A stretch of DNA of 58,780 bases, the filler included, from Sphacelaria rigidula (taxonomy: Eukaryota): the NCBI GenBank assembly GCA_964200075.2. It is 8 parts of 8 records of this genome, joined end to end, with 100 filler letters (N's around TTAATTAATTAA, not from the genome) between each part and the next. Parts side by side here need not be neighbours in the genome. Positions count along the whole stretch, not along the records: positions 22,084 to 29,343 come from CAXNAA020015730.1; positions 29,444 to 36,703 come from CAXNAA020015731.1; 6 more parts are not named here. One strand, given 5' to 3'. Positions 4,545 through 58,780 of this stretch are shown here, in pieces. The notes under the pieces were generated by a model. The model did not search any database, was not told the origin of the DNA, and was given only the letters and a program-made list of their open reading frames with translations. The first letter of the stretch is position 1. Each line of letters begins with the position of its first letter. Made by a program: the position numbers and the translations under genes.

Positions 4545-5062
4545 CCCCCCTCCCTATTGGGTTGGCGTCGGTTGGCAATGGCGCTGAATTACACACCTCT
4601 AACTGTGTTTGCTAGGCGACCAGGTTTACGGGGTTTTTTTCGCCCTTGCGTTTTTATTGTGGTAATCATGATGGTCGAGCTAGATCATATTGTGCGGGTT
4701 GGGAGAACCTCAACTCCGCGCGAAGGCGATGATCATACTACTTTTTGTTCAAATGATGAGACACCCATGAAACAGCGTGTAAGCCATGGCTGTCTCTGGA
4801 AGTGGCGATACCAGAAAGTGAAGCAACTCATTGTAGGTTGCTATCCGTATGCAAGATACTCAGCACGTTTCGGGCCGAACAATCTTAGCAGGATGCAGCT
4901 CACCCTTCATGCGACTCGCCGAACACATCACGGCGCTTCGCCCTTGGTGATTGATTGCGAGCCTGGTCCGGCGAAAGCCCGGCGCGCTTCGTGCCGGCTT
5001 CTTGGGGATGCGAGGTCAATGGCCTCATGACTACGACATGCACATAATGAGTACACCCTCCC
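4545..5062 (+). mobile_element. LINE-derived 3' fragment, family B (~500 bp, C-run tail)
   Basis: Homologous along its length to 44200-44705; ends ATGAGTACACCCTCCC. Confidence 0.75.
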
Positions 5063-7209: not shown

Positions 7210-7261
7210 GAATGTTGGAGGTGCCTCTGATAGGAGTAGGAACGATGCTCCGTCTCGAAAG
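7210..7261 (+). mobile_element. LINE 3' fragment, family A, cut by the contig end
   Basis: GAATGTTGGAGGTGCCTCTGATAGGAGTAGGAACGATGCTCCGTCTCGAAAG directly after a C-run. Confidence 0.75.
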
Positions 7262-7454: not shown

Positions 7455-7746
7455 TCGTAGAAAGTATCTTGAGTGTAGAGAGCAAATTAAGAGTGGCTTT
7501 GATTATTCGCTTTTACTCAGCCAATCTTTCATTCCTTGTGTGTTCTTTGCGTCCATCACTGCCGTGTGCTCACAGCTACACGTCGATATCCTCCTCAGGG
7601 ATATCAAGTGCCTCAGTGGCGCACTACTACAGAATTAACAATGGACCTCGTGTAGGGGCATTCCGGAACTGAAACGATTCATTCACTGATTGACCGGTTT
7701 TTACTCTCAATCGTATCCTCTACTCTCAATCTCACGAAAACATTGT
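7455..7746. mobile_element. MITE copy, same family as 18681-18980
   Basis: Shares CACAGCTACACGTCGATATC...GGAACTGAAACG...CTCTACTCTCAATCTCACGAAAAC with 18785-18980. Confidence 0.65.
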
Positions 7747-7749: not shown

Positions 7750-8396
7750 ATGTGATGTTGTGACTTGTCATTTTGAGTTTGATGAGATGCATCTGCATCG
7801 ACCTTCGCAGGATGAGTAGAAAAGTCCCGCTATCAAGGGTTTTCACATAGAGCGGTAACACAAGTGGAACGCTCGTTTCTAAAACCAGAATAATAATTCC
7901 TATACATATTCCAGTATGTTCGATATCAGTACAACGTACACTCATCGTGCCAGATCGTGATGGATATTCGAATCAGCAGGTTGCCCACCATTTGTCTTGT
8001 CTGCAGGGCAGTGGGGACGTTCTGATGTGTTGCTTGCCTTAGTCGTTTGACCATTGACCACGCATCCCTTTCGAGACGGAGCACAGGGCAGTGGGGGGGC
8101 GGCATATAGCACAAGATGCAGTACATGTAGTGCGCAATGATATACAGTGATGCAAGGTGTACGACAACGGGAAAATACGGCATTCAAGCGTCCTAATGCA
8201 CGCAGGTAGTATTTCGTATTGACATAACATGCATATAGTGATCGGTGGGTCTGTATTGGGTCGAAAATGGCACCCTTGCCGGATATTACGAGCATAAATC
8301 GCGCATTTTTTTGGATGCGAGCATGAATCGGGGAATAAATTCCGCTTTACGAGCATAATTTTTGGTGAGATTACTAGTATAATAAGTAAAAGCCTA
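7750..8396. mobile_element. Terminal fragment of the hAT element (second copy of 13510-13981)
   Basis: Colinear with 13510-13981; ends ACTAGTATAATAAGTAAAAGCCTA, the near reverse complement of the TIR at 11413. Confidence 0.65.
8017..8083 (-). mobile_element. 67-nt family A LINE-end insertion with 13-bp TSD
   Basis: Flanked by CAGGGCAGTGGGG at 8004-8016 and 8084-8096; the empty site is visible in the paralogous repeat near 13660-13680. Confidence 0.85.
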
Positions 8397-11412: not shown

Positions 11413-13981
11413 TAGGCTTCTACTTATTATGCTAGCATAATTTCTGGCATAATTCCACCTTGGTGGCATAAATAGCATAGCGTTTCAGCAAGTGGCAAAA
11501 CCGAACATAATTTCCACGTTAGGAGCATAACTGAGCATCATTCTTCACAGTAGGGGTGGGGACACTGGTCTTAACGCTCACCTGCTGTGTTATTTTGGGC
11601 GAAAACTCTGCTATCATCGACCGCGGGTCTGAAAACGTGTATGCTCTGGAACTAGTCATTAAAACTGCCAGTCTGATCGATCTCAGGTCTGAAAAACGTT
11701 TTCATGAAAGCACACGACACAAAACATGAACACGTACAATGTACTGTACAGTATAAACCCTGACCACCTCGCCCTCTGTTGTACTCAAGGGCCACTGCCG
11801 GGGCAAGGCGACCACCAAAAGTCTGCTCCCGTCTACTATCCAGACGCGCCCGGATGATAGAGAAAACTCACGCTATGAAGCATGGCGATGGCTGGATTCG
11901 CGCCAGGTCCATCGCCACGCTGTGCCAAGCTGACAGATGGCCCCTGTTGTTCCTCCAAAACGTCAATAGGTCGTCTTCAGCATCGATATCGGTTGGCGCT
12001 ACGCGATACTCGTCCCTTTCCATGACGAGCTTGTCGACGATGTCATTCGTCAAAAACATAAACACCGTCAACGCGCTGACGTCGTTCTTTGTGTACATGT
12101 GTTGCTTCATGTACGTGAAATTCGCGAGTTTGGCAGCTTTGAAAACTCTTTTTTTCTTGGCTTATCATTTTTGTGTGTGTGTTTTTGTTCTTACTTTCTC
12201 TGGCTACTTCATCCTTCTTGTACACTCCAGTATTTTTCCACAATTTCTACCCCTTCATGTGTTTCCTTTTTTGCACCTTTTTTCATGGGTTGTACTCATC
12301 TTGCGACCTCGGCTGGATTCGAAGCAGATCGGTCCATGCGACACAATCGATCTAACAACCATTCATCAATTAACCCTTTTGGGATTGGGCCTCCAGAACG
12401 ACCAATGAGGCTGCTTAGGGATGACATGTCCTGCATATGCATGAAACAGTGGCGTCATGTTGCTAAAAAACAACGTATGTATGTAACGGCAGGGTTAGAT
12501 GAAGACCGAAAGTTTCATCCAACCTATTTTTAGGTGCAGGTATGGACTGTTGGTACTTTAATTCGGGTGTTGTGCGCGTCAGGTAATGTACAGATGTATC
12601 AGGCAGTGTGAGTCGCTGTGGGGGGCTTTGAGCAGGATGTGGCAACCGCCGCCCGCCACTTGTGGCCTTCGATATTGTCTTCATCACCTTGCCACACAGA
12701 CCTTCGCGGTCGGGGTGGGCCGCGATCCCCCTATTTGTTGCAAGCGGCAAATCGAACGGCATGGGTGTTGCGCCGCAGATACAGTACGGTGCAACACGCC
12801 TTTCCGAATGCAGTAGCAACTGCCGCTGCATACCCCCTCACATGTTCTGGGCAGCTCTCCGCGACGGAGATCAGCTACCTCCACACAGCAAGTTCGTTAC
12901 CGTCGATTACATACGACCTCACCGCCGCTTGTACCGCTCCGGCCGAGGGATACGCAGAACTCATACCTCTAGCTTCGTCTCTCGTCCCACGACGTTGCCA
13001 GATTCAGTCACCTTGTGAACATGACCATATATATATATATATATATAAAGCAGGGGACATTTATTCCCGAATTTCCCCCCGAGCACTACGTGTGAGTGTT
13101 ATCAACTAGGGTTGACTATTGAATGGTGACCTGAAAAAAAAATCGGGGGATGGGAGGTCGGACCTACATAAAATGCAAGTAAATGATGAAAAAATCGGGA
13201 ATTCGAGCCCCGACAATATGGGCTTTCTTTTGCTTCGAAGGCTTGTTTGTGGGCTAGGGACAGGGTACACCAACTTGCGGTGACATCACTCCCGGCGGCA
13301 ACACCCCCCCCCACTGGTCGTTCGGATGGGGTCGATAAGTTTCGCCTCGCCCTGAGTGGACAGGCCGCTTCCAGACTTGTTTATTTTTATTTCACCAACA
13401 CATACCCTTTGTTAGTGAGATTCAGTCCCAAAAGGATTAATTGTCATTTTTTCGTTTGTCGTTGTCTGTGGACACGAGTTCCTCGACATGGGACAGGCGA
13501 AGAGTGACCACATGATGTGATTTCGTGACTTGTCAGGGTGAGTGTGGTGACAAGATGCGTCTGCATCGGCCTTCGCAGGATGCTGCGTACAACGTACGCT
13601 CATTGTGCCAGATTATGATGAATATTCGAAGCAGTAGATTGCCTGCCATATGTCCTGTCTATTCGGCAGTGAGGGGGGCGGCATATAGCACACGATGCAG
13701 TACAAACAGTGCGGGATGATATTCCACGATGCACCGTGTACGACGGCAGTAAAATGTGGCATTCAATCGTACTAATGTAGGTAAGCAAGACTTCGTGTAT
13801 ATATTCAACATGCATACAGTGATCGGTGGGTCTGTATCCGGTCGAAGGTGGCATCCTTGTTGGATACAGTATTACGAGCATAATCGAGCACCAATTCCAC
13901 GCTGCAAGGATAAATCGAGCATAAATTCCACTTCACGAGCATAATTACTAGTGAGAATACTAGCATAAAAAGAAACCTTTA
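11413..13981 (-). mobile_element. Decayed hAT DNA transposon
   Basis: TIR TAGGCTTCTACTTATTATGCTAG at 11413, degenerate partner near 13958-13981, GCATAA subterminal repeats, transposase remnant inside; no TSD seen. Confidence 0.6.
11760..13010 (-). pseudogene. hAT transposase remnant including the C-terminal dimerisation domain
   Basis: FKAAKLANF...DLLTFWRNNRGHLSAWHSVAMDLARIQPSPCFIA*VFSII...ALEYN resembles the hAT W..P/L..A..PSS..ERVFS motif; in-frame stops present. Confidence 0.75.
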
Positions 13982-14722: not shown

Positions 14723-14995
14723 CCGTCCAGGCTTTGTAGGGATGCGAGGTCAATGATCATATGACTACGGCATGCACTATCATGAGCACCCCCCTCCCCC
14801 CCCTCCTTCACATTAAAACCAAGATATGTAAAACGGTGTTTGTGTCGAGTATGGAAAAAAACGTAATGAGCACCGAAATGTTGAAGGTGTCTCTAGTAGG
14901 AGTGGGGACGGTGCTCCGTCTCGAGAAGTATGCGTGGTTAATGATCAAACGACGAAGGCAAGCAACAAATGAGTACGCCCCCCTCCTTCCCCCAT
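14723..14995 (+). mobile_element. Tandem LINE 3' fragments (family B then family A), each ending in a C-run
   Basis: ...ATCATGAGCACCCCCCTCCCCCCC followed by ...GCAACAAATGAGTACGCCCCCCTCC. Confidence 0.75.
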
Positions 14996-16516: not shown

Positions 16517-16700
16517 AGGGGAAGCGTACTCATTCGTTGGTTGCTTTAGTTGCTTGACCATTGACCACCTATCCCTCGAGACGAGGGGGCGACGAGGGGG
16601 GTACTCATGATCTCGCATGCCGTAGTCATCGAATCAGTGACCTCGCATCCCTACAAAGTCGGGACGGAGCACGTGGGGTTTTCGCTGGGACCGGAGGGGG
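16517..16700 (-). mobile_element. Adjacent short family A and family B LINE-end fragments at G-runs
   Basis: GGGGAAGCGTACTCATTCGTTG... then GAGGGGGGTACTCATGATC...GGAGCACG. Confidence 0.7.
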
Positions 16701-21821: not shown

Positions 21822-21983
21822 CGGGGGGGGGTGTACTCATGATCATCATGCATGCCATAGTCTTAAGACCACTGACCTCGCATCCCTGCACAACCGGGAC
21901 GGAGCACGCCGGGTTTTCGCCGAACCAGGCTCGCACTCAATCACCAAGCGCGAAGCGCTGTGGTGTGTTCGGTGAGTCGCATG
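21822..21983 (-). mobile_element. LINE 3' fragment, family B, cut by the contig end
   Basis: G-run then TGTACTCATGATC...CACTCAATCACCAAGCGCGAAGCG. Confidence 0.8.
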
Positions 21984-22649
21984 NNNNNNNNNNNNNNNNN
22001 NNNNNNNNNNNNNNNNNNNNNNNNNNNTTAATTAATTAANNNNNNNNNNNNNNNNNNNNNNNNNNNNNNNNNNNNNNNNNNNNCCTAGCTTCCGTAGTGA
22101 GTGGCGTGTTTTATAGCGTCATCGCCAACCGACGCCAACACCATCGGGGGTCCGCCCCTACAAAGCCGGGACGGAGCACGCCGGGTTCTCGCCGGACCAG
22201 GCAGAGGTTCGGGGGGGGGGGGCAATCGTAGAAAGAGTCGTGTGTGGAGATAGGGTGAAAATTGGGCTTGGAATTCGTAATACGATCTAAGGACAATTTG
22301 AAGGGCGCTGATTGGTCGAGACACTTATTCGTCCTCAGTGCTACCATTATGGCCTCGAACACAAATCTGACTATGTCACGCCCTTCAAAGTGTCCATGGC
22401 GGGTCTGTATGATGAAATGTTTGCAATTATTTGGTAGGTACTGCGAAAATGCATTTGCTGATGACACAATTCTGGGCGATAAGCATGAACCAGCCTGTAC
22501 TGTAGTTTTTGGCCGCAGGGAAACGTACACCAAAAGTAGAATCAAAATGCTCTCCGTGTGACGAGTGCGTGACAACGCAGGAAACCCAATACCTTCTCTC
22601 CCGGAATTGAAATTTTTCGTCGCGACAAAAGCACGTCCCTTCTTCTCAC

Positions 22650-22710: not shown

Positions 22711-23657
22711 CTGACTCGATACAAGTCCGCAAAAAAAATCGATAAAGGAAAACATAACAAACGCAGCAGACGAAGCGGAAACACGATACACGCATACATG
22801 CGTAGAGCGCGCAATCATTGGCTGCCCAATATGCAAAAAGCGCAACGAAAATCGGACATGAACAATAATATTGTTGCAGGTTCAGCTTAGTTTACCCGGC
22901 AATTCTGATGCTGCGATCCAAGACGCCTGTCACCTATTTTTTTCGTTTCATCTCCATGTTAGCCCTGCGCACACGATGGCCGCCATGCAGCGACGCAGAA
23001 GATTGCTATTGCGATACAGATATACTCTGTATTCCAAGCAAAGACCACTAAGACAATTTCATCAGCGACCGGAAGAAACAATACATGCAGCGCGTTGACT
23101 AGAGGGGGAGCGGGAGGAGGGGGGGAGGTGCGTACTCATTTGTTGCTTGCCTTAGTCGTTTGACCATTTATCAAAAGGCGATTATTAGGGGACTGAATAC
23201 AAAAAAAACAGTACAGTGTAGTTAGGTCAAGTTACGACTTCTGATTTCTGCTGAAAGATTCCAGATATCTCTGGGCACAACAGCCAAGTTTCTGCCGAGT
23301 ACGACCGCGTTGTGACAGGATTCTTCAAAGTACAAGCGATCCTGCAAACAAAAAAATAAAAAATCTTGGCAGTTGCAGGGTTCACGAAAGGTATGCAAAG
23401 GTTTTCAATTTCTGTGCTTCTTTCCACAAATCCGCTTGAAACGCAAAGCACAAGGTCACATTTTTTCCAGTGACACCATCCATGTACGGTAGCATACGAC
23501 ACCAACGCGGAACGCTGCATGACTTCGGCTATTTGTATCTACATCAATACTGCATGTAGAGTTTAGAAGGAAAAATAAAATAACATACGATTGAAGATAC
23601 GATCTTTCACTTCGCATTTACTGGGTGCTTTTTTTGTTTTTTTCTGTAAAAACTTAC

Positions 23658-24539: not shown

Positions 24540-25887
24540 TGAAGTATAAAACGAGCGGGAGTGGACAGGTAGAATGTGAGAAGGAAAGAGTGGAGGGGGC
24601 TTATTTCAGGTGCTCGGGGTCATCCAAAGGTTACAAGCTTGCCCTGGGCGGCGCTACGATCGATCGAACTTCCGTACCGGCTTACGCACCGAATATTCCC
24701 AACAAACAACAAGTGCGCCAACTCTGGTACGACGCGTGGACGGTTGCAGAGCAGCAGCCTGTCCTTTCGTGAGACGCAGACCACCACAACGAAGGCATTT
24801 TTTCCAGGTTTTGGAATGATGTTGGAGCAGAAAATGATTGCGAGCGCTTCAAACAGCACACAGGGCTCCGTTGAAGACCGCACACTACTATTCCCTACGT
24901 ATGTGAGGCCTCGAACGGCTGAAAGAGTAGCGCTCATCGACAGCAATCGACGTCAGCAAAGGCAGCTACTTCATCATCGAGGACGCATATATCAAGGGGC
25001 CATCGGGAAATCACGGCACCAGCCCCCCCCCCCCCAAGGGGTCGAGAATGAGGAAATGACCACATCAGCTGTGCAAAAATCTTATTCTTCCCGTTTCTCA
25101 ACAAATATACGGAATTAAACGATCAACGCATGACCTAGGGTCTTCCTCGGCATGAGCAGCCCAAAACCGAGGAGTTTTGGTGGGTCAGCCGTTCTTGTGG
25201 CCGCAGGGGAGCAAATTCGCTGGCTGGATAATGACTGTAGAGTCGCGATGATCGCTGGATAATGAGTATTGAGTGCGCCAGCTTCGGCGAGACCGGCGGT
25301 CACCGACTTAGTACTTCCGCCAAGCTGCTGTAGTGGTAGGGCCGCCATGCTGAGGAGAGCGGTGTACGACGAGTAGCTCTTTGCTGCTACCGAATGATAT
25401 GTAATATCTTGTGCAATGTACATGCTGTGCTCGTGATGTAACCTGACTTCGGGATTACCAACCGGCATGGATCTCTTATGATATTCTATATAGTATATTA
25501 ATTGATGAATGAATGAATTGGTTGGTTGGTGATGTGGTTGGTGCATGGAATTATATTTATTGGACAAAGGGGAGACACTATATGTAACGTATGTGAATTT
25601 TATATGATCACGTAGATTGCCCCCGTTTGAGCAGACAGCGACGTTTATCCAACGTGCATCTCTACATGTCGTCATCATACTGCACTGCGACACAATATAT
25701 GGATAGGTTGCAAAGGGAACATTTAATTATTATTTATTATTTATTATTGTTTATTGTTTATTTTCATTATCTCAGTACAGCAAGTACCTGCTCCTGCCCC
25801 AGAATGAGGTTTTGGCGACAAGGGGGGCCCTGGTGCCGTAATTTCCCGATGTAGGGCCCCTTGCATATAGTATATATATATACACAC

Positions 25888-26380: not shown

Positions 26381-27680
26381 GGGGTACCTATTCGTTGCTC
26401 GGCTTCGTCATTTGCCTATTGGACACGCATCCCTCTTTAGAGGGAGCACCGTTCCACAGGCACCGTAGGTAAGGTAGGTACCCGGTACCGGTATTTGGGA
26501 CATCACATACAGTACCGATACCGGTCAAATCTGGTATTTTCAAAACTTATACCTACGATACCACGGTATTTCGAGATCTCAATACCTACCGTACCCGCTA
26601 AATCCGGTATTTTCAAAACTCATACCTATAATACCTACGATACCACGGTATTTCGAGGTTCCAATACCTACCCTACCGGCCCAATCCGGTATTTTCAAAA
26701 CTCATACCTACGATCCCTACGATACCAGGGTATTTCGAGTTTTGAATACCTACCGTACCGGCCCAATCCGGTATTTTGAAATGTCATACCTACCATGCCT
26801 ACGCATACCACGGTATGGGATACCCCGGTAAATACCGGCGGTACGCTCGGTACGGTACCTCACCTATGGTGCCTGTGAAAACTTCGGCTGCCCAACTTGC
26901 ACCCAGATCTGAAACGCTTCGCACTGCCGAATGACAGTTTTGAATTCGGTATAGAGGGTAAGGCAGGTACCCGGTACCGGTATTTGGGACATCACATACC
27001 GTACCGATACTGACCCAACCCGGTATTTTCGAAGCTCATACCTACAATACCTACGATACCACGGTATTTCGAGATTTCAATACCTACCGTACTTGCTAAC
27101 TCCGGTATTTTCGAAACTCATACCTACGATACGATACCACGGTATTTCGAGATTTCAATACCTACCCTACCCGCTCAATCCGGTATTTTCAAAACTCATA
27201 CCTACGACACCTACGATACCTACGATACCTACGATACCTACGATACCACGGTATTTCGAAATTTCAATACCTACCGTACCCGCTCAATCCGGTATTTTTA
27301 AAACTCATACCTACAATACCTACCGTACCGGCCCAATCCGGTATTTTGAAGTGTCATACCTACGATACCTACGCATACCACGGTAAATACCGGGGGTACG
27401 CTCGGTACGGTACCTTACCTACGGTGCCTGTGCACCGTTCCTACTCCTAGTAGAGACACCTCCAACATTAAAGCGATCCCTAAGTTTCTTCCACACATCA
27501 CCACACAAAAACTTTTCTACATATCTTATCCCCTTCTTGTTTCGCTGTCTGTGGCCACCCATCTATCGCCTAGCATACCAATCGTTTTGCTCACGACCAT
27601 CTAACGTATCAATTAATTTTATGCCACTTTCGTTTTACTTCCCACATATTCCCCCTATTAACGCGTTGCTCCGGCCCGAA
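26381..27680 (-). mobile_element. Longer family A LINE 3' fragment interrupted by the P-like element
   Basis: Removing 26455-27440 restores GGAGCACCGTTCCTACTCC; the minus strand gives a frameshifted C-terminal peptide like LGDR.WPQTAKQEGDKICRK..VWKK..NVGGVSTRSRNGAP. Confidence 0.7.
26455..27432. mobile_element. Composite non-autonomous TIR element with 8-bp TSD (P-superfamily-like CACAG ends)
   Basis: Perfect 22-bp TIR CACAGGCACCGTAGGTAAGGTA; TSD CACCGTTC at 26447-26454 and 27433-27440; an internal extra right end at 26877; TACCTACGA repeats. Confidence 0.85.
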
Positions 27681-28839
27681 AGGGAGGCGTGGTCAATGGT
27701 CAAACGACTACTGTAAGGCAAGCAACAAATGAGAACGCTCCCCCCCCACTAACGCGTCCCGTTCCTCCTTGTGCAGTTCACAATCCTTCCAATGTATGAG
27801 TTTTACTCTCTACTGCTTTTGCCCCGGGGGCAATGATTTGCATCTACTTCAAGCGTCGAACGAATAGCGATTCGTCTTCGTATTATTTTGCTCCTAGAGG
27901 AATTGATTTGTACCGTAAGAATCTATATCCTTTTCTTTTTTTTTCCCAGCATAGCACCCCAGGTACGAGCACACATCCCAGGCACGTAGGACAGCGTAGA
28001 GACTTCTTCGACCCGCGGCCAACTTTTATTTGTTTTGTTTACCCTCTTTGGAGCAATCAGACCTCGGAAAACGTAAATCCGGTGATTCGAACAGCGATGA
28101 TTCGTCTCACCCTTCATCTACTTCCACACGTATGACGGAGCAGAACACGCAAGCAGTGATACTAATTTTTTTTTCTAACTTGATTTTTATTTATTTTTAG
28201 TAGTCAGACTTTGAACCCCTACTTCCCTTCCTCGGGACGACTGCTGCACTGTGGTTTGTCTCAAGAAATCCATTTAGCCATGCATGTCACCCCGGTGTAC
28301 CGGCCAAGCGTTCGCCGTTTCAGAACAACACGTTCTGCAACGGCTCGGTGGGTGCGCTGGTGTATTGTGTCCATGTGCTTTACTCGGCCGGCAAGAGAGA
28401 GCCTGCTCCTTTTTTGGCTGCTGCTGCTGCTGCTGCGTTTGAATTTACCAAGAATGCTCTACGTACATGTGGGTTCGCCGCAGAACAATTCGATGGTGTG
28501 TTGAGTGGGGTAAATACCGAGGTATTTACTCTCCCGAAGTTAGCGTTGTAATAGTTTGATCTCCAAACTCTATCCAAAATATTCGTTAGCGTTGGGTACG
28601 ATCTCGTTCATTCCACCTGGGTGTTGGCGGGTACGATCTCAGTATTCTATCCAAAATTTGGGTGATTCGGGGACAATTTTCCAAAATACCCCAAAATGTA
28701 GAATATAGCGTACCCGACACACACACCCTTGGAACCAATTGTTCGACGATTTAGGAATCCTGCCACGTGTTTCGCGTCATGTGTGTTCAAGAACGAGACT
28801 CGATATTGCTCCAGAAGCTGAGAGTCATCCTACGACAGT

Positions 28840-29282
28840 GGGGGGGGGGGGGGGGGGAGGAGCGTACCCATTCGTTGCTTGCCTTAGTTGTTTGACCATT
28901 GTCCACGCATCCCTTGCGAGACGGAGCACCGTTCCTACTCCTACTATAGATACCTCCAGCATTCTGGCGCCCATCTCGTTACTTCCATACATTACACAGA
29001 AACATTTTTGCACATCTTGTCCCCTTTCTGAATCGCCGTCTCCTAAGGGGGGGGTTGTACGCATGACCGAGCCGGGACGGAGCACGCCGGGTTTTTTGCC
29101 GGACCAGGCTCGCACTCAATCACCAAGCGCCAAGCGCCGTGGTATGTTCGGCGATTCGCATGAAAGGTGAGCCGCATCCAGCTAAGATTCTTCGGCCCGA
29201 AGCGTACCGACCATCTTACATTTTGGATGGCAACCTACAACGAGTTGCTTTATTTTCTAGTATTACCAGTTCGAGAGACAGT
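28840..29282 (-). mobile_element. Family A (28840-29020) and family B (29070-29282) LINE 3' fragments
   Basis: Long G-run then CGTACCCATTCGTTGCTTGCC...; family B body follows. Confidence 0.75.
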
Positions 29283-29456
29283 CATATATTTGGGGGAGGG
29301 GGGGGGCGGGCGGGGAGAACGCATGGGTTGCATGGATTAGACGNNNNNNNNNNNNNNNNNNNNNNNNNNNNNNNNNNNNNNNNNNNNTTAATTAATTAAN
29401 NNNNNNNNNNNNNNNNNNNNNNNNNNNNNNNNNNNNNNNNNNNCCCCCATCAGACT

Positions 29457-29522
29457 TGCTCCGTCTCGAAAGGGATGCGTGGTCAATGGTCAAATGACTA
29501 AGGCAAGCAACAAATGAGTACG
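29457..29522 (+). mobile_element. 66-nt family A LINE-end insertion with 13-bp TSD
   Basis: Flanked by CCCCCATCAGACT at 29444-29456 and 29523-29535. Confidence 0.88.
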
Positions 29523-31951
29523 CCCCCATCAGACTAGCAAGAGAGGTGTACCACATCAACAGTACACGTTTTAACCTAATATCAGTAGTACATTAGTTCG
29601 TGATATGATGACGTCCCTCCAGGGCCACCAGTATGCAAAATCCGTGCATTTGCGCATGCGATCAACCCGTGTTGGAGGAACACTTGACCTAAAACTTTGG
29701 TATGCATGGTGAATTCTGAACACACATACATGCGGTACATACTCGTCTCTAGGAACTTGATCCAACACGAAGGAAACCCCAAACAACGCCATTTTTTTAT
29801 ACCCTTGTCATGCGATGCCCAACGGGAACATTTTTTTTCAAACGCCCGACACTATCCTGTTGTTGAGCGTGACGACAATGAACACCAACGTACAAATTTG
29901 AAGAACGGGGAGAAGGGTGCCCTCAACTTGTTCGACAGCTACCCCCAAGTCATGCTAGGACGGGGGGGGTGGGGGGATCTGTTCGATTCCACGAAAAATA
30001 TATGCTCGTAGGTGCGTCAGATGATCTACCACACGCGCGGTGCGCTTGTATTTGGGTAAAAGCGGTGTCAAGCAGTATGAAGGAGCATTATTTATCGGGA
30101 ACAATCGCGCCTTAGAACAACCGTTCTGCTTTCAACGACTTGAGTAGAATTTCGTGGAGGGAAACGGCCCAAAATACCCTCCCGCCCCCCTTGCCCTGAT
30201 CATAGCATGACTCCCCTCACCATAAACAAAAACGTTTTTTAGACTGCGATGTAAGGGACTCTGCCGACCTGTGCGTGGCTGCCCACATCTAGACTAACTG
30301 CAAGATGCCCTCAATATGTAACGAGTGCGTATATTTTCGTGGAGATGCCATAATCCACAATCTTCAGCTAGCATGGCATCAATACTTCGTGCGCTCTCTC
30401 CCGCAATAACGGGACACATGCACAGACTTCATGTTTGTATGTACATGGTGTAAGTGGGGATGCCGGCCTGCCTTTTACCACGGCGATTGTCTTCGGTACG
30501 TTCACCGAAGTACAGTAGTCGCCTATTATCTGCCAAACTATTCAACCGGCCATGGTATCGACACCCGTCCTGTACCCCCTCCACTTCACAGTACCGCCCG
30601 CGATCAATACTTGAAAGTGTCAACAGCTGACATAACGAACACTCGTCGAATATCTCCTGGAATGATGCCGAACTTTTGAGACCACCCCCTTTTGCTTTCT
30701 GTTCTCGTTGGCTGTACGATGATATGTAAAACGTATATTGGTAAAATCTCTTTTTTTTGGGACACACACACGTCCTACTGTGATGACAGACGAAACTCAG
30801 ACCACTTCACGTGCCGGTAACATGGACCACCCAGCGGTTCTGTTTGACATGAAGTTGTGGGCGCGGTCTAACTGGTGGTTTTGTGGCATTTAGTGACTTT
30901 TTCGTAAGGGGCGATATTCTCGTGCTCTTTTCGCTTGCCACCGTTCATCACATTGGGGATCTAAAGATATTCGTATCCGCTCCACGTTCCAAGGGAAAAA
31001 TCATCTATACTCAATGTTGAGGTGACTCACGGGCTGACCGGTCATCCGGGGTCCTTTCACGTTTCAGCCCAGATCCTTACTCTTCGGTATTCTAGGTCGA
31101 TCGAGCCTGTGCCGATCATATTTGTGGAGAAATACACAGTTTTGTTTTTTTGAAAGTTCATCTTTTCATCGCACTAGAGCCGAAAAACTGTGTTTCACGG
31201 TCAATAACACCCTCCTGATAAACGGGGTATTTACTCTTATCGCCCGACAACATCAAGTAGCATTGACTTGGGCAGCACTGTGTCTCGAGGATGATCTGTT
31301 TATTTAACCAAAATCTACCGACGCTAGCTATTTCGAGTTCTATCGAAGAGCAGTACGCGAGGAAAACCCCAAAACACCCCTGAATAGTTAGACCGCCCAC
31401 TCCTGTACACAGCAATACCATACACATGCTGCTCCAATACGGTGTAATGACGCAGTAAGGCACACCAATCCGACTCAGAGTGAGACGAAACTTGCAGGAG
31501 GTCGTGCCATGCCACCAACATGGTTCACCCCGAGGGATTCCCGACCGCACGGCGCCTATGCTACGGGCCGAGAACATGCCATTCCAACAATTACCCGACG
31601 GCCACTGAGCAATGCTACGGTAGGGGTTGCACTTTTTGTTTCTGGTCTCTTTTTTGCAGGAGCCCAAATATATCGAGCTTACTGGGCAACCCACATCTCC
31701 GAGGACTGGACTCCCAGAAACATGATGATTGCACGCAGGGGCCTTGTCGTGAATCGGCATCATTTTCAGTATTTTGCAAGGAAAAATGATGCCGACTCCC
31801 GAAATGATTCATCCAACATCCCGAGCAACCCCGAGAAACGTTTTCGCTTTGAAAAAGTGCAACCTACTGTAGCATTGCTCTACTCTGGGATTATTTTCGC
31901 CTCCGACCGCCTCTCAAAGGCAGTCTGGTTGAACTGCACCAACACGCTCGC

Positions 31952-36240: not shown

Positions 36241-36547
36241 TTTCACCAAACTATGCCACGTGAGGTGACGAATCGTTCTGGTGTGAGCATATAATCATAC
36301 GCCAGATGGATGCATGCACGCGTTTCGAATTCGAGAGAAGCGAGTGTTTCGGCTCATCGTCCATGTGATTTGACGGCCCGGCACGTAGACACCGGCGATT
36401 CAGTCAAGTACCCACTATTCACCCTGGGGTAGAGATGACGTGAGGTTACCCGTCGTGCAATATTCGACTTATTGGAGATCGGCAGTCGTGGTGTTTAAAC
36501 TGGCGCCTGAGCCCGTGTTTGTTGGTTCCCTACAATACGCTGGTGTG

Positions 36548-36703
36548 GCACCCATGAGGCAGCGTATAAGCCGTGGCTGTCTCAGGAAGTGGCGATTCCA
36601 GAAAATAAAGCAACTCATTGAAGGCTGTCATCCAAATGCAACATAAATCAGTAGGCTTCGGCCGAGCAATCTTGACAGGATGCAGCTCACCCTTCATGCG
36701 ACT
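36548..36703 (+). mobile_element. LINE-derived family B fragment at the contig end
   Basis: CACCCATGAGGCAGCG...GGATGCAGCTCACCCTTCATGCGACT matches 4762-4917. Confidence 0.75.
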
Positions 36704-36829: not shown

Positions 36830-37940
36830 TTGCTGCCGCCAGCATAGAAGAATCACGGCTATGTGATCTGCTCGCGGTTACTTTCCTCGCCAGTCTATTG
36901 GCATACATGTTACGGAGGGTACTTTCAATATCCCCGATGCTCAGTCTGGGTCTCGTTCTGCGTTATATTATTCACTTGGTCATACTCGCTGGTTAGACCC
37001 TCGACTATGAAATCAGTGAGTCTTTCGTCGGAGATAGGCTCGCCAATGTGCACGAGTTCGTCCCGGAGCTGGAATAGTTTTGCCAAAAAAACATCCGGGT
37101 CTTGTCCTGGTGACATAGTCATGTTGTCCAGCTGTCGCATCAGTATGCGACGTCTTTGCGTAGATGAATCTTGATACTTGGCTACCAGTCCTTCCCACGC
37201 ATTTTTGCCGTTTGGTTTCTCTGAACCCTTCGGCTGAAAACGTAAGAGGTAACTTGCCGCTGAGCCAGTTGTCGATCAGTACAAAACGTTGAACAACTGT
37301 TTGTTATATCGGTCCCAGTTTTGTATCTCACGCGTGTTCAAGATTTGTCTCACATTTGAGTCCACGCTGGGATGATCAGACACTTCTTGAACAGGAGGTT
37401 GGGCTTGGTCATCGGCAGCTTCAGTGTCACCCGCCGCTGCTGTCGTCTCGCTCCTCGCGGTTGCTTCCGCCGATGGTTACGGCGAACGAGCGGGTGGCTG
37501 CTGATGGCTTCTGGAACGGGTCGCAATGGGGCTTCATCTTGATGTCGATCTGGCAGCTGGTTGTGGGTGATCTACCTCAGAAAAATCTTCATCATGAATT
37601 TCCGGGGGGCGTTCAACCCCGTTGAGGATATCAGATATCGCTGGATGAGTCAAGGAAATATCAGATATCGCTGGATGAGTCAAGGAAACTATCGCGCGTG
37701 TAGAGCGCGTCCACTCGACGAATTTCGTACCGTCGAACTTGTTTATACTCCTGATGAGTTGAGTTACAGATGGCTCTCTCGATGTATTCATCTGCCTCAA
37801 GTTTTATTTGTAAAACTTTCTGTTCACACCGGCCAATCCTCTGGAAGGATCTGATTTCTTGGTCTTCTGATTGATGCTGCTGAGACGACCTTGAAGTGAC
37901 GTCCCCTCGCTCGTGCTGACCGTCGTAGTCTTGACTCAAA
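36830..37940 (-). pseudogene. Ty1/Copia gag remnant
   Basis: KFDGTKFVEW...; NKQLFNVLY*STTGSAASYL...GKNAWEGLVAKYQ...MRQLDNMTMSPGQDPDVFLAKLFQLRDELVHIGEPISDERLTDFIVEGLTSEY (Copia gag/UBN2-like); stop and frameshifts. Confidence 0.85.
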
Positions 37941-38639: not shown

Positions 38640-41600
38640 ACACGACATTGGCGGCGGCATGTTGTTGGAGTTGCCGTCGGGCGATGCCGCGGAGATCGTC
38701 TCTGATCTCCGGAGGTATTGTGCTGTGGTAGTTGGACACGGTGGGTTCTTGAGGCTCGGGCAGCTCGAACTTGACGGCGCTGGAGCCCACGGAGCGAAGG
38801 CTGCGGTCAATGTCTAACAGCGCCAGGTTGCGGAGGTCGTCGTTCAGTTGTTTTTTGCTGTCCAACTGGCGTGCCTGGTGGAGGAAATCGGCGGCGAGTT
38901 CATCGCAGTGACGATTCCACAGCAGCAGGGGCTTCTGGACCTGACAGCACCGCAAGAGGGTAACAAAAAGCTGACGGAGGGCGGGAATGGACGTCTGCGA
39001 GATGATGGCGTCTTGTAGGCAGCGGTTCCACCCGTCATCATTCTGCAGCAGCAAACGGCGGCGGCAAGCCTCGTTTCAACGTCTCCATCATCCAACGTGC
39101 GCAGCGCTTGGAAAGATGTGGCCCCAGCAACGTGGCAGAGGAGGAGACGGATGTAGAACCTCTGTCCCGATGATGGATGGGTGGTGTTAACACACCCGAT
39201 CTGACCTGTCTACCGCCGGCGATCCTTCCATGCCTTGGTCTTGGTGTGCCAGGTGAAGTGCGCGGGGAAGTTGTTGTACAGTATTCGTCGTGTGGGGTCA
39301 TACGGCCCCACCCCCGCGTTCTTTGCCAAGTACGCCGTGAGAGTAGTGGGTCCGCCGTTCGCCAGCACTTGCTGCGCGGTAGCCGGTGTGAACATCACGC
39401 ACTGACCGTCTGGTTCATGTACAGCAAGATGTATAACTGACGGGTGACGGTCGGTCATGCCGAGGTCGAAGATACGCCAGGCCGCCTCGCATGATCCCAG
39501 ATATCGAGCGTCGTCATACGTCGTGATCTTGTCATCATCATCTCCCTCCTCAGTGACCCCGGTGATAGTGCGGTCACCCCCCTTGTAGACGTACTTATGG
39601 ATGTACTTGACGCTCTTCACCGAAGCGCAGAGCTCAACGTTGATGTGAGCGTTATACTTTAGGGTTAGAGCAGGGTTGTATGGAACCATCCACGTGTTGT
39701 CCACCCACCGGCCTGTGAGGAACACACCCTGCGGTCCCACCCGGTACGTTTTGGACCGGTTTCCATCTACATGGACAGAGACATCCAGTATGGAGTCATA
39801 AGGGGGCCGCCGCCGCCGGTACTCGGCGTACCCGTCTTCCGCCGCGGTAGTCCGCTCCGCGGGTTGTCGGGGGAATCGCTTTGAACACCGGCCGTCTTTC
39901 ATGCACGAAGAGCCGCAAGGACCATGGATGTTGGAAGAGGCGATGATGTGGAAAGGTCGCGGCTGCTGGCGGATGTCGGGTAACTCGGCGGAAATGTACT
40001 TGTCGTATTCATCCGGAGTTGGCTTGTCCTCCGGTGCGAATATGATCAACATGTGGGCATGGGGTAGACCGCGCTTCTGGAACTGGACAGATGTGACAGG
40101 TGCGACAAATAATGTGGCAGAGAGTGCAGGTAGAAATAAGTCATCAACGCGCGGCGTCGCCGGGTGCACAATCAACGGGGATCACACAGGACACGGATTG
40201 TCTGCGTGCGGGAGGGGGAGGGGGGGGGGGAATATTGGAGCTGAGGACAACTATTTCACTCGGAAAGTCTCGGGAGACGCACCTCGATCACTCTAAGCCA
40301 GGCGACGGCTCTGCCCCCAAGTACCCTTTCTTCAGGATATCATCTTCCAAAGCTCTCAGCTCCAGACGAAAAACGCGAGAGACGATGTCGGGGCGATCGC
40401 TTGGGTCCTGTCCTTCGAGCAATGCCTCTGTGATCTCCGGCCAGCCTGCAAGGAGTCACAGTAAACAGAAACGAAGGAACGGTGATGTAATCTGAGATCT
40501 TTTACCGAAGCCAACATCGTGTTAAAAATATTTCGAAGAATCCACCAGCCAATCAGGCACTCGGTCAATGTATTAAACTGATTAGCAAAAACAATGTAGT
40601 CAATAGTCAACAACCCATAAGCCCACCTGTCGATGACATGAAAAAACCAAGTGCTGAATCTGAGGGTACTCACTTGGGTTGCACGTAAAGGTAGCGAAGA
40701 CGTCCGGCTTCCCGAAGTGACAGACGATGGCCATGGCGTCAAGATAACGCTGCGCCATGTACCGGGGGCCACCGGTGAAACTGAGGGAGAGGACGGTGAC
40801 AGCCCGGCCAACATCGCTGGGGTGATTGCCTTGCTGCAGGGCGTCGCGGAGCTCTCGGCGCTCATTACCGCGAAGGGCTTCCTGGTTGTTCCGTTGGAAC
40901 TGCAATCTTTCGTGCTCAATCTGACATGCATAGTCAACTACCCACTGCTGGAATAGCCTGCCGCCGACGTGGAGCATGCTAGAGAGCGGTAGGGGAGGTG
41001 CGCCGATTGCGGCCCCCCGCTATTGTGTCCTGCACGTGAGACGGTATGCAGTAAATTCTCGCTTGGAGACCATACGCCGCGCACCGCCGGTGGCGCCGCC
41101 GCCTCGCGGACGTCTTTCCCCCGGCGCATTAACTTGCAGCGGACGCAGAGGGTCGTCGCTGTGCTGGGGGATCTCATTGTGGGACCCGCACTCACCCGTA
41201 GGGTTGAGGATGGGGTACGACAGGGCATCTACGGGGGGATGATTCTCGCAAATCCTCCTCAAAATACCTGGCAAGTCTTGGATGACAATGTCGCGAATGT
41301 AGTTGTGTCGGTCGTGAGCGTCGGGCATCACGGCGGCAACCTCACGTGGAGCGGCCGTCGCGTTGTAGCGCCGGGAATCCGGTGTTGGTTCGGCGCGCAA
41401 GAAGAGACGCCCCCCTGGTCCCACGGCACCGCCAGCCCGCTGCAGACTGTCTGACGCAGACAGGTACATTCTGGCATATCTGTGTTCACGAGAGATGACT
41501 ATCTGCACCATTTGCGCCGCGCGTTGGAGGTCACCCTCTCGAAGCTCCGAAACAGTGTTGAGGCGATACCCCAGTTGCTCGTCTTCGCTAGAGTAGAAGT

Positions 41601-42368
41601 AGATATGACTGTAGCGGGGGATGGGGTCTCGGCGCAGCAACTGTAGCTGGGGATGAAACTGCCCTTGTACAGCAAAAGTGTATGGACCGTTGATCTCGAA
41701 CCGGCAGGGTTCGCGGACTACAGGTCGGTGTTGTCCCATCGAGCAGCGGGAGGCGTGGGTTGTGTTACCGTTGTACCGAGGTGGAAGGTGCGTGATCCCC
41801 AACCAGCGTTGCCAATTCCCTGCGCGGCTCAGCGCGTACACCTGGCGTACTTGGCCACACCACCGCTGGACGGGCCGATGACCGGAGGGTAACATCACCA
41901 GAAACGGTAGCGGGCATCCTAGTTGCCTCTGTGACAGAAACCCTGATCGTCGCGTGGGAAGTTACCGTCATCGAAGCAGCTAACGGATGCTACCGGTCCC
42001 GCCCCTGATGCAACTAGCTGTTCTACCACCTCCCTCAACTAACGAACCTCGTCAGTAATCGAGGTGATCTTGGACACTAAACCCTCAGCGCTTGCCTCGG
42101 TGCCATCACGGTTGTTTACGATGGTGTCGACGCGGTCGCTGGTGCGGCCCATATTTTCGGTAATGTAGCCCACCTGATCGTCCAACTAATCAGTTTGTTG
42201 GATAGTAGCACGCGGCAAGCTTGTCACCATCCCACCGTCGAGGGCGAGCCATCCCGACGAAGCAGGACCGTTACTGTGTGTAGCCTTTCTGGTGACAAAA
42301 GCGGGCGCTGCGGCCCTTCGTTTCCAGTTGCCACCCATCCCCGCCGAAGCTCGTGCTGACGACGGCAT
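38640..42368 (-). mobile_element. Helitron Rep/Hel gene, decayed and truncated before the helicase
   Basis: Conserved motifs GPYTFAVQGQ, RRYN..EVAA, HP..DALSYPIL, GGRLFQQWVVD, SFTGGPRYM..YLDAMAIV..FGKPDVF.TFTCNP, EFQKRGLPHAHMLI (HUH), HINVELC.SVKSVKYIHKYVYKG, ARYLGSCEAAWRIF; frameshifts; GT-AG introns 40446-40673 and 40083-40282. Confidence 0.95.
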
Positions 42369-44177: not shown

Positions 44178-44199
<22 letters not shown>

Positions 44200-44214
<15 letters not shown>

Positions 44215-44705
44215 ACTCATGATCCTGCATACCGTACTCGTGGTCAGAAGATCATTGACCTTGCATCCCTACGAAGCCGGGACGGAGCGGGCCGAGTTTT
44301 CGCCAGACTCGGAGTCACCAAGCGCAAAGCGCCGTGATGTGTTTGGCGAGTCGCATGACGGATGAGCTGCGTCCTACCAAAATGTTTTGGCCTGAAGCGT
44401 ACTGATCATCTGCCATGTGGATGTGATGACAACGTACAATGAGTTGCCTTATTTCTGGTACCGCCACTCCCAGAGACAACCGCGGGTTACACACGCCGCC
44501 TCATGGGTGTATCACCATTCAAACATCACGTAGTACGATCACCCCATTTGCGCAGGGTTCGGGTTCTAAGATGATCTAGCTCGATCACCATCATGGTTGC
44601 CCCAAAAAACATGCAAACTAAAAACGGGAACCTGGTTGCCTAGCATACGCAGTGAGTGACTCGTTTCACCGCGTCGTTGCCCACCGACGCCAACCCTCAA
44701 TAGGG
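44200..44705 (-). mobile_element. LINE-derived family B element (~500 bp) ending in a long C-run
   Basis: Long G-run then TACTCATGATC...; colinear with 4545-5062. Confidence 0.8.
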
Positions 44706-45444: not shown

Positions 45445-45808
45445 CGCTGTGTGAGTGTTGTGTGTTGTCGTCCCATCTATTCTGGGTGCCGGTATACACC
45501 TTTCGGTATATGTGGGCGCACCAGACGGGGTTACACAGGAGTAAGGTCAACACATGAGCTTTTTCTTCTTTATTTGTTTTTAGTACTCCACCTTTCTTCT
45601 GCGGTGCTTGCCTTTATTTTTTTATCGCGAGAGGCAATCCCTTTTCCTCGTCGGCCGTCGAGTCGAATTTTGTGTACCCACGACGTAGTCGCTCTCCACT
45701 GTTGGGCAGTGTGTGACAAAATATCCCAGATCGCTCCGAGAATCGAACCCACGACCCAACCAACCATCAGAAGGTTTCAAGGTTACCAACTGAGCCACCG
45801 GGGCGACC
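45445..45808 (-). mobile_element. tRNA-derived SINE, best-preserved copy
   Basis: Head GGTCGCCCCGGTGGCTCAGTTGG (A box) and GGTTCGATTC (B box), then a body shared with 92-684 and a CA-rich tail. Confidence 0.82.
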
Positions 45809-49913: not shown

Positions 49914-51859
49914 GTATGATGAGATTTTAGTCTCCGCACTTGGCGGTACAACTTGTCCATGCACAACACATCATTTATTTGTGGCTTAAAATATCACATA
50001 CGGATCTCAACACGAAGCAATGCTAATGCTGCTGTGGTGGTAGGTGCACCTTCTGCGCAAAATCTTGTCTGCTTCAGGGGTTCCTAACGATTCCAGATGC
50101 CCACGAACATGGGACAGGGCATCCCCGTTTGCCAATTCTTTCGGCATATCCTTAGCACATTATTGTAATCCTGGCCTACTCTCACATATTTCATGAGTCA
50201 GTCGTGTTTGAGAGATGAAGGGCTTCAAACAATTCTAGCCTCGGAAATTTTGTGCACCCCTACCGTAGCATCACACTCTACAGTACAGGCTTCCCTCCCC
50301 ATAGTTGTGTGTTGTGTGTTGCCATCCTTATTCTGCTCTCCAGTGTGGAGGTTCATGATCTCAGCCTTCAGCCTTCGCTTCGTGGAGAGCTAATAAGAGG
50401 ACCGGACGCCAAGAAACGTGGTGTTCGCACGCAGGGGCCTTTTGTGTGTGTGTGTATCGGCATCATTTATTTTCATTAGTTTTCTAAGTAAAAATGATGC
50501 CGATTCACAAACAGGCCACTGCGTGCGCGAACACCAAGTTTCTCGGGATTCGGTCGCCAGGGGTTTGCCCTTGGATGGCGAGAATAGGTCATGTGTTGAA
50601 TTGGCATCAATTTCAGTTGAAAAAAGGATGCATGATCCAGATGGACTATCCTCGCGGTCTAAAGGCCAACCCTTTTGAAACCATCGATGGAAAAGTGACC
50701 AACTGTTGTTGATGCAGCCCACCAAAACGGTACACCGCACTTGACTCTCAGACCGCGAAGGTAGTCCATCTCGATCACGCATACTTTTTTCAAGTGAATC
50801 TTGATGCCGATTCAGCTGGTGAACTACCCTCGCGGTCGAAGGGTTAAGTTCAAGTACAGCATACCATGTGACAGATTCGTGCACCAAACTCGAAGCAGTG
50901 ACGTTTTCCCGATGACGACCTTTCGCGAGTTCCAAAACGGTCAAGATGCGACTGGGTGAGGCAACGCACGTGTCCGGATCTAATTTGTACGCCCAAGATA
51001 GTATTAAGAGGCCGCGCCGACCGAACTCGCTCACTGTGAATACGCGCAGTATCTACTCCACTGTACGATATGTGGTGCTCTCTCATGAGTTACACGCTGT
51101 ACCACAGTCTACTCGTGCCAAGTACGAAATGAAATTTCAGCCAGACCCCTGGTTGCTGCATATCCTTGAAGCAGATCTTTGCGTAAGTTCCCCCGCGAAC
51201 GTGGGACCTACAGCTCGTCCTGCTGCTCTCAAATGTGTTGCGCGAGCGATGTCCTGTTTACCCAACGTTTAGGGTCCGATTTTTCGTGGATCCGATTTTA
51301 TTTCCCGATTTTCCTTTTACCCTAACATGGGGTGGTAGCCTGTGACCACGCAAGACGTCCGAGTCAGATGCCCAGTACAGCACTGCGCAGATACCGGAAC
51401 GGCTTTTTAATGTGAAGACAANNNNNNNNNNNNNNNNNNNNNNNNNNNNNNNNNNNNNNNNNNNNTTAATTAATTAANNNNNNNNNNNNNNNNNNNNNNN
51501 NNNNNNNNNNNNNNNNNNNNNGTGGTGTGTTCGGCGAGTCGCATGGAGGGTGAGCTGCATCCTGTGAACATTGTTCGGCCCGAAGCCTACGTTAAGCAGT
51601 GGGGGGGGTGCATGATACATCGACAGCAGCCATGCTCACATTGACACTCCCCTAGCATAGTCGGAAACAACAGTAGGGAACGTGGCCTCGTCGTGTGCAA
51701 GTCGTGGCTTGGGCATCGCAAACCACGAACGCTGCAGGCCGTGCGCTAATGGGCCTTCCCACGACGAAATGCCAAGAACACTGACCGATGCACTCAGTGA
51801 CACGAGCCTCCTCCACACCACTACACTTGTCTCGAAACCCTCGCTACGAATGTGTTCAG

Positions 51860-56436: not shown

Positions 56437-56720
56437 GGGGGGGGGGTACTCATGATCTTGCGTGCCGTGGTCATTTGATAATTGACCTCGCATCCCTAAA
56501 AAGCCGGGACGGAGCACGCCGGCTTTTCGCCGGACTAGGCTCGCAGTTAATCACCAAGCGCGTAGCGCCGTTATCTATTCGGCAAGTTGCATGAAGGGTG
56601 AGCTGCATCCTGCTACGATTTTTCGCCCGAAGCGTACTGATTACTTTTCACTTGGATGACAGCCTCGAATGAGTTGCTTCATTTTCTGGTATCGCCACTT
56701 CCAGAGACAGCCACGGGTTC
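56437..56720 (-). mobile_element. LINE-derived family B fragment
   Basis: G-run then TACTCATGATCTTGCGTGCCG...CCAGAGACAGCCACGG. Confidence 0.8.
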
Positions 56721-56765
56721 CGCACTTCCTCACAGGTGTCTCACCATAGGTGAGGTGTGTGTGCG

Positions 56766-56806
<41 letters not shown>

Positions 56807-56808
56807 GA

Positions 56809-56856
56809 GTGTACTCATGATCATGCGTGCCATAGTCATCAGACCATTGACCTCGC
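56809..56856 (-). mobile_element. ~48-nt family B fragment with probable TSD, beside a (TG)n microsatellite
   Basis: GTGTGTGTAGG occurs on both sides of GTGTACTCATGATC...TTGACCTCGC. Confidence 0.65.
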
Positions 56857-57507
56857 GCGCGTGTGTGTAGGGGGGGGTCGGGATATCGAGAGCCGTTTTG
56901 TTGCCGTTCAGTGTAGTAGCTCAATCACAACAATATACTCATGTTCGATGTTCGATTTTGACTGCACCATTGTTGTTACGACACGTGCATAGCCTTGTGA
57001 GAGCTCTTTCTAGGCTCGACTCCCGTCGAGCCAATCATAGGGCTGACTTCCTGAGTGATTCGGATGGAAACCGTCGAAGAAGAGTATTTTTGTGGAGATG
57101 AAATATCCCTCTTGCATTCTAGTACAACGTGTCTACGACCGCCTCGTCATTAGCGAGCTCTTCGATGCGCTTATCGTGTGAACCATGGAGTGTGAACAGG
57201 GCTTCCACTGTGGTCAAGCATTCAAGTTCTTCGAGGAATTGGCACCAGGAAAGCATCCTTTGTGGTGTGAAGCAGTAAACCGGTCCACAACACAAGCCCA
57301 CCCACCGGAAAAGTACAGGAGACAGTTCCGAGTTCGACCATGTTTTCGGGCAACCACGTAACGCAACGGAGTGGGAATTGGCAAGCGTGCCTATGCTGTA
57401 GGGATTACGCGTTGGTTTCCGGCTTCAGTGGTGCGCGTGGCAATATCCGTCTCTCTTGTTTCCGTTCCTTGGGCCGCGCGCGTATTGCCTCCCTACTCGC
57501 TTCGTAG

Positions 57508-58731: not shown

Positions 58732-58780
58732 TGCTCCGTCTCGAAAGGGATGCGTGGTCAATGGTCAAATGACTAAGGCA
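58732..58780 (+). mobile_element. Family A LINE-end module cut by the window end
   Basis: C-run, 7 nt, then TGCTCCGTCTCGAAAGGGATGCGTGGTCAATGG. Confidence 0.8.

Follow-up and report, generated by a model that had tools for sequence, protein, structure and literature searches.

Runs of C at the 3' ends and target sites of a LINE and its non-autonomous partner in Sphacelaria rigidula

In a 58,780-base stretch of DNA from Sphacelaria rigidula (assembly GCA_964200075.2; this whole stretch is referred to below as the window), positions 29444-29535 consist of CCCCCATCAGACT, a 66-nt unit reading TGCTCC...AAATGAGTACG, and CCCCCATCAGACT once more. The unit belongs to a dispersed repeat, family A, which like a second repeat, family B, typically stops at a run of C, and the locus raises the question whether such a run is the tail of a long interspersed nuclear element (LINE), the target into which the element was inserted, or both. 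We report that family A derives from an autonomous LINE, that family B is a non-autonomous partner dependent on that LINE, and that the runs are both tail and target. Specifically, we regard it as quite probable that LINE and partner have a C-rich RNA end which primes at a nick in a G-run, and that each tail is inherited from the source copy.

The 29444 insertion, its LINE and the partner

The fifth contig of the window begins at position 29444, and the upstream copy of CCCCCATCAGACT (29444..29456) forms its first bases. The family A copy that follows (29457..29522, plus strand) is 5'-truncated and comprises the last 19 codons of a reading frame, its TGA stop and GTACG, while the downstream copy of the duplication (29523..29535) supplies the C5 that appears as a tail. 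As the contig starts at 29444, the left run may extend beyond the 5 C seen. Logan contigs from four public runs in three studies were aligned to 29444-30043 (600 nt) at a likeness of at least 80%; among the matches listed (32 pieces, with 108,640 more in existence) none bridges the left junction for this locus itself, and the unique piece of the locus begins at 29502.

A search of metagenome contigs in public data with 23 nt taken from the end of family A gave three loci, L001 to L003, the first two of them marine. L002 carries an uninterrupted frame of 1426 codons, the only frame of at least 100 codons on the sense strand of a contig that may lack the true 5' end, and L001 an open frame of 1253 codons that is cut by the contig end. 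Both frames end ...GCVVNGQ(T/M)TKASNK, with the TGA inside AAATGAGTACG and 5 nt before a run of C10 or C8. The spacing of 5 nt between stop and run, which an earlier note on this DNA had read from the window, is thus seen in intact frames. In P0001 and P0002, respectively, Pfam recognised Exo_endo_phos (6.7e-13 and 3.1e-11) and RVT_1 (1.1e-30 and 7.7e-33). The order within the frame is an apurinic-type endonuclease, a reverse transcriptase and a C-terminal Cys/His motif, and the solved reverse transcriptase structures matched are those of L1 ORF2p (3e-22, the best match) and R2 (4e-18). Since intact endonuclease and reverse transcriptase frames end in the same unit, family A represents the 3' terminal part of an autonomous LINE, and the LINE on L001 matches 29457-29527 at its 3' end with 100% identity. 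The base at 29495 is T in this copy and C in about 80% of the genome-wide depth, and in the LINE frame of L001/L002 the T gives Met as against Thr in most copies; L001 shares the minority T.

Among named proteins, the closest come from Ectocarpus sp. (59% and 47% identity), which points to a brown alga or one of its close relatives as host. Ectocarpus relatives of P0001 have a homologous C-terminus, ...APSSRGRVVNGLTAK, and relatives at 39-43% identity (P0008-P0023) keep a C-terminal ...GCVVNG..AMAA; judged from these alignments the frame end seems to be conserved far beyond family A. The family A copies in the window are all shorter than about 420 nt. Moreover, Pfam found neither reverse transcriptase nor endonuclease in the 29 window frames of at least 150 codons and in 143 of the 157 frames of 90-149 codons (14 frames overlapping repeats were omitted), and the window is therefore taken to be without an autonomous copy.

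Family B resembles family A in its last 58-77 nt only (74-84% identity). The similarity begins at TGCTCC, which is also where short copies start: by our own tally, five of the ten listed family A copies begin at, or a few bases from, the TGCTCC of this module. The longest copies of B are two of about 500 nt, which begin with the same sequence. The longest B frame, at 4527-5027, has no homologue among longer proteins, and for this reason B was not treated as coding. ARAGORN predicted no tRNA in family B, Rfam gave no relevant family at E values up to 1, and the head of B did not match the first 711 nt of L002, a contig that may lack the true 5' end, at E values up to 1e-3. Two classifications were considered and rejected: a short interspersed nuclear element (SINE), for which the ARAGORN and Rfam searches gave no RNA polymerase III head (tRNA, 5S or 7SL), and a truncated LINE, the resemblance being confined to the terminal 58-77 nt. 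The earlier note had taken both families to be LINE-derived, and this can be refined: A is the LINE itself, and B a distinct non-autonomous element that depends on the LINE and has only its terminal 58-77 nt in common with it. Noncoding B keeps GGGATGCG(A)GGTCAATG, the stretch that encodes GCVVNG in A, and this fits a 66-nt module serving as a putative RNA handle that overlaps the frame end.

C-runs as tail and as target

The terminus of the elements is ...ATGAGTAC(G/A) followed by a C-run. Sixteen 3' ends of families A and B are readable; C-runs were sought in the next 15 nt, and the background was taken from 115,886 windows on both strands. A C-run of at least 4 nt is present at 14 of the 16 (background 3.9%; binomial tail 2e-18) and one of at least 5 nt at 12 (background 1.4%; binomial tail 9e-20), the two ends lacking any such run being those at 5054 (ACCCTCCC) and at 56811 (ACTCC, then (AC)n). 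Poly(A) was found at none of the 16, in agreement with what had been claimed for these ends. The opposite flank behaves likewise: with 19 5' junctions placed from alignments, 16 have a C-run of at least 4 nt within 30 nt upstream (background 8%; tail 2e-15), and in three of these 16 the run is the tail of a preceding copy.

Target-site duplications locate the runs more closely. Exact duplications of 13 nt are CCCCCATCAGACT (29444-29456 and 29523-29535) and CAGGGCAGTGGGG (8004-8016 and 8084-8096), the latter around a 67-nt family A copy on the minus strand (8017..8083); one of 12 nt, CCCCCCTCCTTC (14798-14809 and 14978-14989), encloses a 168-nt family A copy (14810..14977, plus strand) inside the C-rich tail of a family B copy; and one of 11 nt, GTGTGTGTAGG (56797-56807 and 56861-56871), encloses a 53-nt family B copy (56808..56860, minus strand). 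A fifth duplication, imperfect, lies at 27651-27666 and 27740-27757. The three exact pairs that the earlier note had reported as including the run do so, and that at 14798 was absent from its list. All five duplications start inside a C-run on the element strand, which places the first nick in the complementary G-run. The locus at 8004 has a paralogue at 13587-13790 without the 67-nt unit, which reads GGCAGTGAGGGGGGCGG across the site; the empty site itself, GGCAGTGAGGGGGG (13665..13678), is a G/C run without insertion, as had been proposed. Because the empty paralogue carries the run, the run predates the insertion and the nick fell inside it. Together with 5' truncation, duplications of 11-16 nt are the signature of target-primed reverse transcription, and with the endonuclease and reverse transcriptase frames they uphold the LINE origin first suggested.

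Copies from 37 to about 500 nt have a common 3' end and no terminal repeats, and their alignments confirm both the variable 5' truncation and the stacking at one another's tails noticed before: A copies sit on the tail of B copies at 14792-14977 and 16525-16680, and an A copy adjoins an internally deleted B copy at 28863-29285.

Genome-wide, the 66-nt unit was matched by 37,645, 22,393, 44,306 and 2,566 contigs in the four public runs, which show tens of thousands of copies. The three studies behind these runs are organism A, an algae metagenome and a set that is only guessed to be RNA; run X1 may be the window's own sample and would then not be independent, while X4 and X6 come from other studies. 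The flank found to the right of the unit here is represented by one contig per run, and only three positions of the unit vary in at least 10% of the depth. Among the loose ends behind 29527 the most numerous class reads, in consensus, C15 or longer (1450, 1032, 1459 and 216 contigs), and the smaller classes have T and then a C-run. On the 5' side, those before 29457 lead on into the body of the LINE, and those before 29459 consist of a long C-run. Head-to-tail joints with only C between the units and the next unit starting from 29457 occur in 72, 42, 73 and 8 contigs, and many of the head-to-tail joints begin at the first base of the module. Insertion at pre-existing C/G runs, one of the original claims, accordingly receives support from the 5' junctions, the empty site and these loose ends.

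That the run also belongs to the element is suggested by the sharing of tails. The C-rich sequence at 23104-23131 and that on L003 have in common CTCCCCCCCTCCTCCC..GCTCCCCC after GTACG (about 24 nt, C-rich and interrupted), and the copies concerned, one of 37 nt at 23132 and a long one on L003, differ in flank and in 5' extent despite the common tail. Likewise, two B copies (56445 and 21832) have C9-GTCCTC after the 3' end. Such shared variants argue for a C end that is templated, as far as can be read from the copies themselves.

According to the reading that we prefer, the template RNA would have at its end a short C-rich stretch derived from the tail of its source copy, and the 3'-OH of the G-run at the nick would pair with this stretch and prime cDNA synthesis, as a T-run does with poly(A) in L1. 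The enzyme may find its own RNA via the conserved 66-nt module overlapping the last 19 codons, and each insertion would leave a new C-run, so that copies stack on tails. That C:G pairing at the nick primes the synthesis, as the earlier note proposed, is compatible with the data, gains from the shared tail variants and may reasonably be inferred.

Several points weigh against this reading. At the well-defined insertions the 3' and 5' runs measure 5 versus at least 5, 4 versus 7, 6 versus 8 and 2 versus 8 C, the insertion at 27740 having 8 versus 5; the 3' run is thus rarely the longer one, which indicates that hardly any tail, if any, was added in these cases, for which a preference of the endonuclease might by itself suffice as explanation. 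Of the C-run tail first proposed, the C-run at the ends stands, but at the best-defined insertions much of the supposed tail is target sequence. Run lengths at contig ends (e.g. 44163-44213) may be artefacts of assembly or sequencing. No transcript end was seen: none of the matched runs is on record as RNA, X6 being guessed, and its contigs, which run on past the C-run, are uninformative on RNA ends, as assembled contigs are in general. The predicted hairpins of seven 3' ends were no stabler than shuffled sequences (z -1.4 to +0.5), and the A/B alignment misplaces the first hairpin. Finally, membership of the RTE-X group, considered below, would follow from matching curated features and from 59% identity to an unnamed Ectocarpus protein.

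The run lengths bear most directly on an explanation by target preference only. If the RNA ended at ...GTAC(G/A) without C and the endonuclease preferred G-runs, the trailing C would be duplicated target, as for microsatellite-targeting LINEs. A 3' run no longer than the 5' run at four of the five well-defined insertions is what this predicts, and the pre-existing run of the empty site, duplications that start in the run and 5' flanks as enriched as the 3' flanks suit it equally. We nevertheless hold it to be unlikely, given that the same complex C-rich sequence follows GTACG in independent copies, that some 3' runs reach 18 to at least 35 C and that the Ectocarpus curators put (C)n in the consensus 3' end. 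The runs are, moreover, too many: the window has 35 C/G runs of at least 7 nt and 11 of at least 12 nt, where a hand estimate for random sequence with 25% C gives about 5 and about 0.005, so that a generator is required. Roughly half of these long runs adjoin an A or B copy.

Reverse transcriptases of LINEs are known, from R2, to add nucleotides without a template, and if G were added to the nicked primer or C to the end of the cDNA, be it ahead of copying or afterwards, this would account for run lengths that range among copies from 2 to more than 35. With the run present also in the upstream duplication copies and in the empty site, and with T-interrupted tail variants shared between copies, we consider this very improbable. 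Poly-G read errors or homopolymer mis-assembly at short-read contig ends can hardly be credited, for although contigs do start or end in runs or repeats and the longest of the runs (44163-44213) is found where a contig begins, most runs are internal with unique sequence on both sides, and the same ends recur in three studies, in three metagenome contigs and in the curated Ectocarpus library.

Returning to a C-rich RNA end that primes at G-runs, we put forward as a tentative extension, possible but short of probable, that the C-run constitutes a self-renewing tail/target system in which the 66-nt module is doubly constrained, as coding sequence for the end of the protein and as an RNA handle for the enzyme, and can be mobilised alone, and which seeds G/C homopolymers. 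Stacks and tandem arrays would then arise because each insertion leaves a fresh preferred target. [quoted passage not shown] The LINE family is a likely main source of long G/C homopolymers in these genomes, and its great abundance is a reason why short-read assembly breaks at repeats and G/C runs.

Further copies and other repeats in the window

The window is made up of eight whole contigs of 7261, 7261, 7261, 7260, 7260, 7259, 7259 and 7259 nt, and the decreasing sizes point to a fragmented assembly sorted by size. The joints (7262-7361, 14623-14722 and five other spacers) read N44-TTAATTAATTAA-N44. Many contig ends fall within family A or B copies or within G/C runs, and any feature at a contig edge needs care.

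Of the remaining copies, the longest belongs to family B (4552..5055, plus strand; about 504 nt), is probably full length and has a C-rich 5' flank and ACCCTCCC as its 3' flank. The second long B copy (44212..44705, minus strand) is followed by at least 35 plus 10 C (44163-44213), a tail which extends to the contig start and is of unreliable length. The B copy that hosts the insertion at 14810 is a 3' end cut by the contig start (14723..14791, plus strand), followed by C-rich sequence at 14792-14809; another, 5'-truncated and with a C-run in both flanks (16600..16680, minus strand), has a short family A copy stacked directly on its tail (16525..16583, minus strand). In the B copy at 29054..29285 (minus strand) the hairpin region is internally deleted and the 5' flank, 29290-29318, is C-rich; beside it lies a family A copy of about 180-195 nt (28863..29041, minus strand) whose C-rich tail at 28840-28862 includes a run of C18. 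A 5'-truncated B copy at 56445..56747 (minus strand) has a C9 tail and then GTCCTC, as does the B copy at 21832..21983 (minus strand), which is cut by the contig end and has its C9 at 21823-21831. Contig edges also cut the B copies at 51522..51590 (minus strand; contig start, with C8, read as G at 51601-51608, 10 nt 5') and 36541..36703 (plus strand; an internal part, contig end). The B fragment at 22130..22210 (minus strand) adjoins with its 5' end a C12 (22211-22222, read as G), itself the tail of a third repeat.

With regard to family A, the shortest copy (23132..23168, minus strand) is the one whose complex C-rich tail at 23104-23131 is common to the independent L003 copy. Two are cut by contig ends: that at 58732..58780 (plus strand) starts from the same TGCTCC, with C13 (58712-58724) 7 nt upstream, and that at 7210..7261 (plus strand) adjoins C12 (7198-7209) with its 5' end. 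The short copy with the imperfect duplication (27667..27737, plus strand) was inserted into an older family A copy (27432-27656 plus 27743-27850, minus strand), the 3' part of which (26383..26455, minus strand) is split from the body (27432-27656) by a 976-nt element.

This element (26456-27431) has perfect terminal inverted repeats of 19 nt (ACAGGCACCGTAGGTAAGG...), internal repeats of about 82 nt and, on its flanks within the family A copy, a 10-nt duplication, GCACCGTTCC, features that resemble those of a non-autonomous DNA transposon. An inverted repeat at 57766-58161, with 189-nt arms that are 92% complementary and 18 nt apart, may be a foldback element or one resembling miniature inverted-repeat transposable elements. 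An unclassified dispersed repeat of about 330 nt occurs at 356-684 and 45473-45807 (71% identity), with an inverted partner at 90-339/45459-45714. The Pfam search of the window frames returned only a Helitron helicase-like N-terminal domain (5.7e-27; 39210-41961, minus strand) and a copia-type gag fragment (2.3e-13; 36928-37275, minus strand), and the window is rich in transposable elements.

C/G runs of 11-21 nt are also present away from recognised A or B copies, at 43984-44003, 53113-53282, 25023-25035 and 40220-40230, three of these isolated runs lying within 170 nt at 53113-53282. The third repeat mentioned above (7440-7482 and 22215-22253, minus strand) ends ...CTTTCTACGATWG and then C8 or C12, the C12 being that adjoined by the family B copy; it gave no match to the LINE loci. 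Further families in this DNA may share the C-run habit.

Comparison with known systems

For Ectocarpus, RTE-X LINEs that have (C)n ends and C-rich duplications are already on record, together with their partners. Supplementary file 1 of PMC12477816 lists RTEX-1_Ec32 with a single endonuclease-reverse transcriptase open reading frame, "(C)n 3'", a target-site duplication (TSD) given as "C-rich" and a length of 5867 bp, and RTEX-2_Ec32 with "(C)n termini/TSD"; of their non-autonomous partners, RTEX-N1_Ec32 (607 bp) is annotated "60 bp 3' end 83% RTEX-1/2" and "can be present in tandem", and RTEX-N2_Ec32 measures 188 bp. The main text of the same paper names RTEX-N1 as the most abundant family, and leaves the C ends undiscussed ("C-rich" has 0 matches). 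In the literature available to us, C tails of RTE-X or other elements without long terminal repeats are likewise discussed nowhere beyond this supplement.

The likeness of the S. rigidula LINE to RTEX-1/2_Ec32, as described in the supplement, extends to a single endonuclease-reverse transcriptase frame without a separate ORF1, the (C)n 3' end, C-rich duplications and a high copy number, and lengths are above 5 kb in both (5.5-5.9 kb, and more than 5.0 kb on L002). The differences are that alga and family are not the same, that the 59% protein identity is to an unnamed Ectocarpus protein, and that the comparison is one of descriptions. The same kind of comparison relates family B (about 500 nt, with a head of unknown origin, C-rich flanks and stacked or tandem occurrence) to RTEX-N1/N2_Ec32, which are also small partners; RTEX-N1, which its authors likewise class as non-autonomous and LINE-dependent, has 60 bp of the LINE's 3' end and can occur in tandem. 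A single endonuclease-reverse transcriptase frame, a (C)n end with C-rich duplications and a partner sharing 58-77 nt are all found here, and would be consistent with membership of RTE-X.

In green algae, all six RTEX families listed in Table 3 of PMC3747384 end in short repeats, among them (CA)n, (CAA)n, (CCAT)n, (ACAATG)n and (CTTGTAA)n, and the same source describes stringent 3' recognition (UnaL2 and others) as well as slippage on repeat tails. RTE-X and RTE LINEs share with the LINE reported here a single frame, a 3' untranslated region that is very short, strong 5' truncation and the lack of poly(A), whereas in S. rigidula the repeat unit is the single base C and the target a matching homopolymer.

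The mechanism proposed has a close parallel in mammalian L1. L1 has a homopolymer RNA end, a complementary homopolymer at the nick and duplications that start with the tail base, and it uses old tails as targets; in these four respects the system proposed here would be alike. The two are unlike in that the recognition of poly(A) by L1 is relaxed, while LINE and partner here have a specific 66-nt module in common, as would fit the stringent type, and in that the base is C and not A. To the Ectocarpus record this study adds a second alga, with exact duplications and an empty site as evidence on the target; it further contributes statistics on the flanks, a genome-wide survey and tail variants that recur between copies. 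A LINE that ends in C is, moreover, a natural counterpart to L1, and one that allows primer-template pairing to be tested against the taste of the endonuclease in the choice of target.

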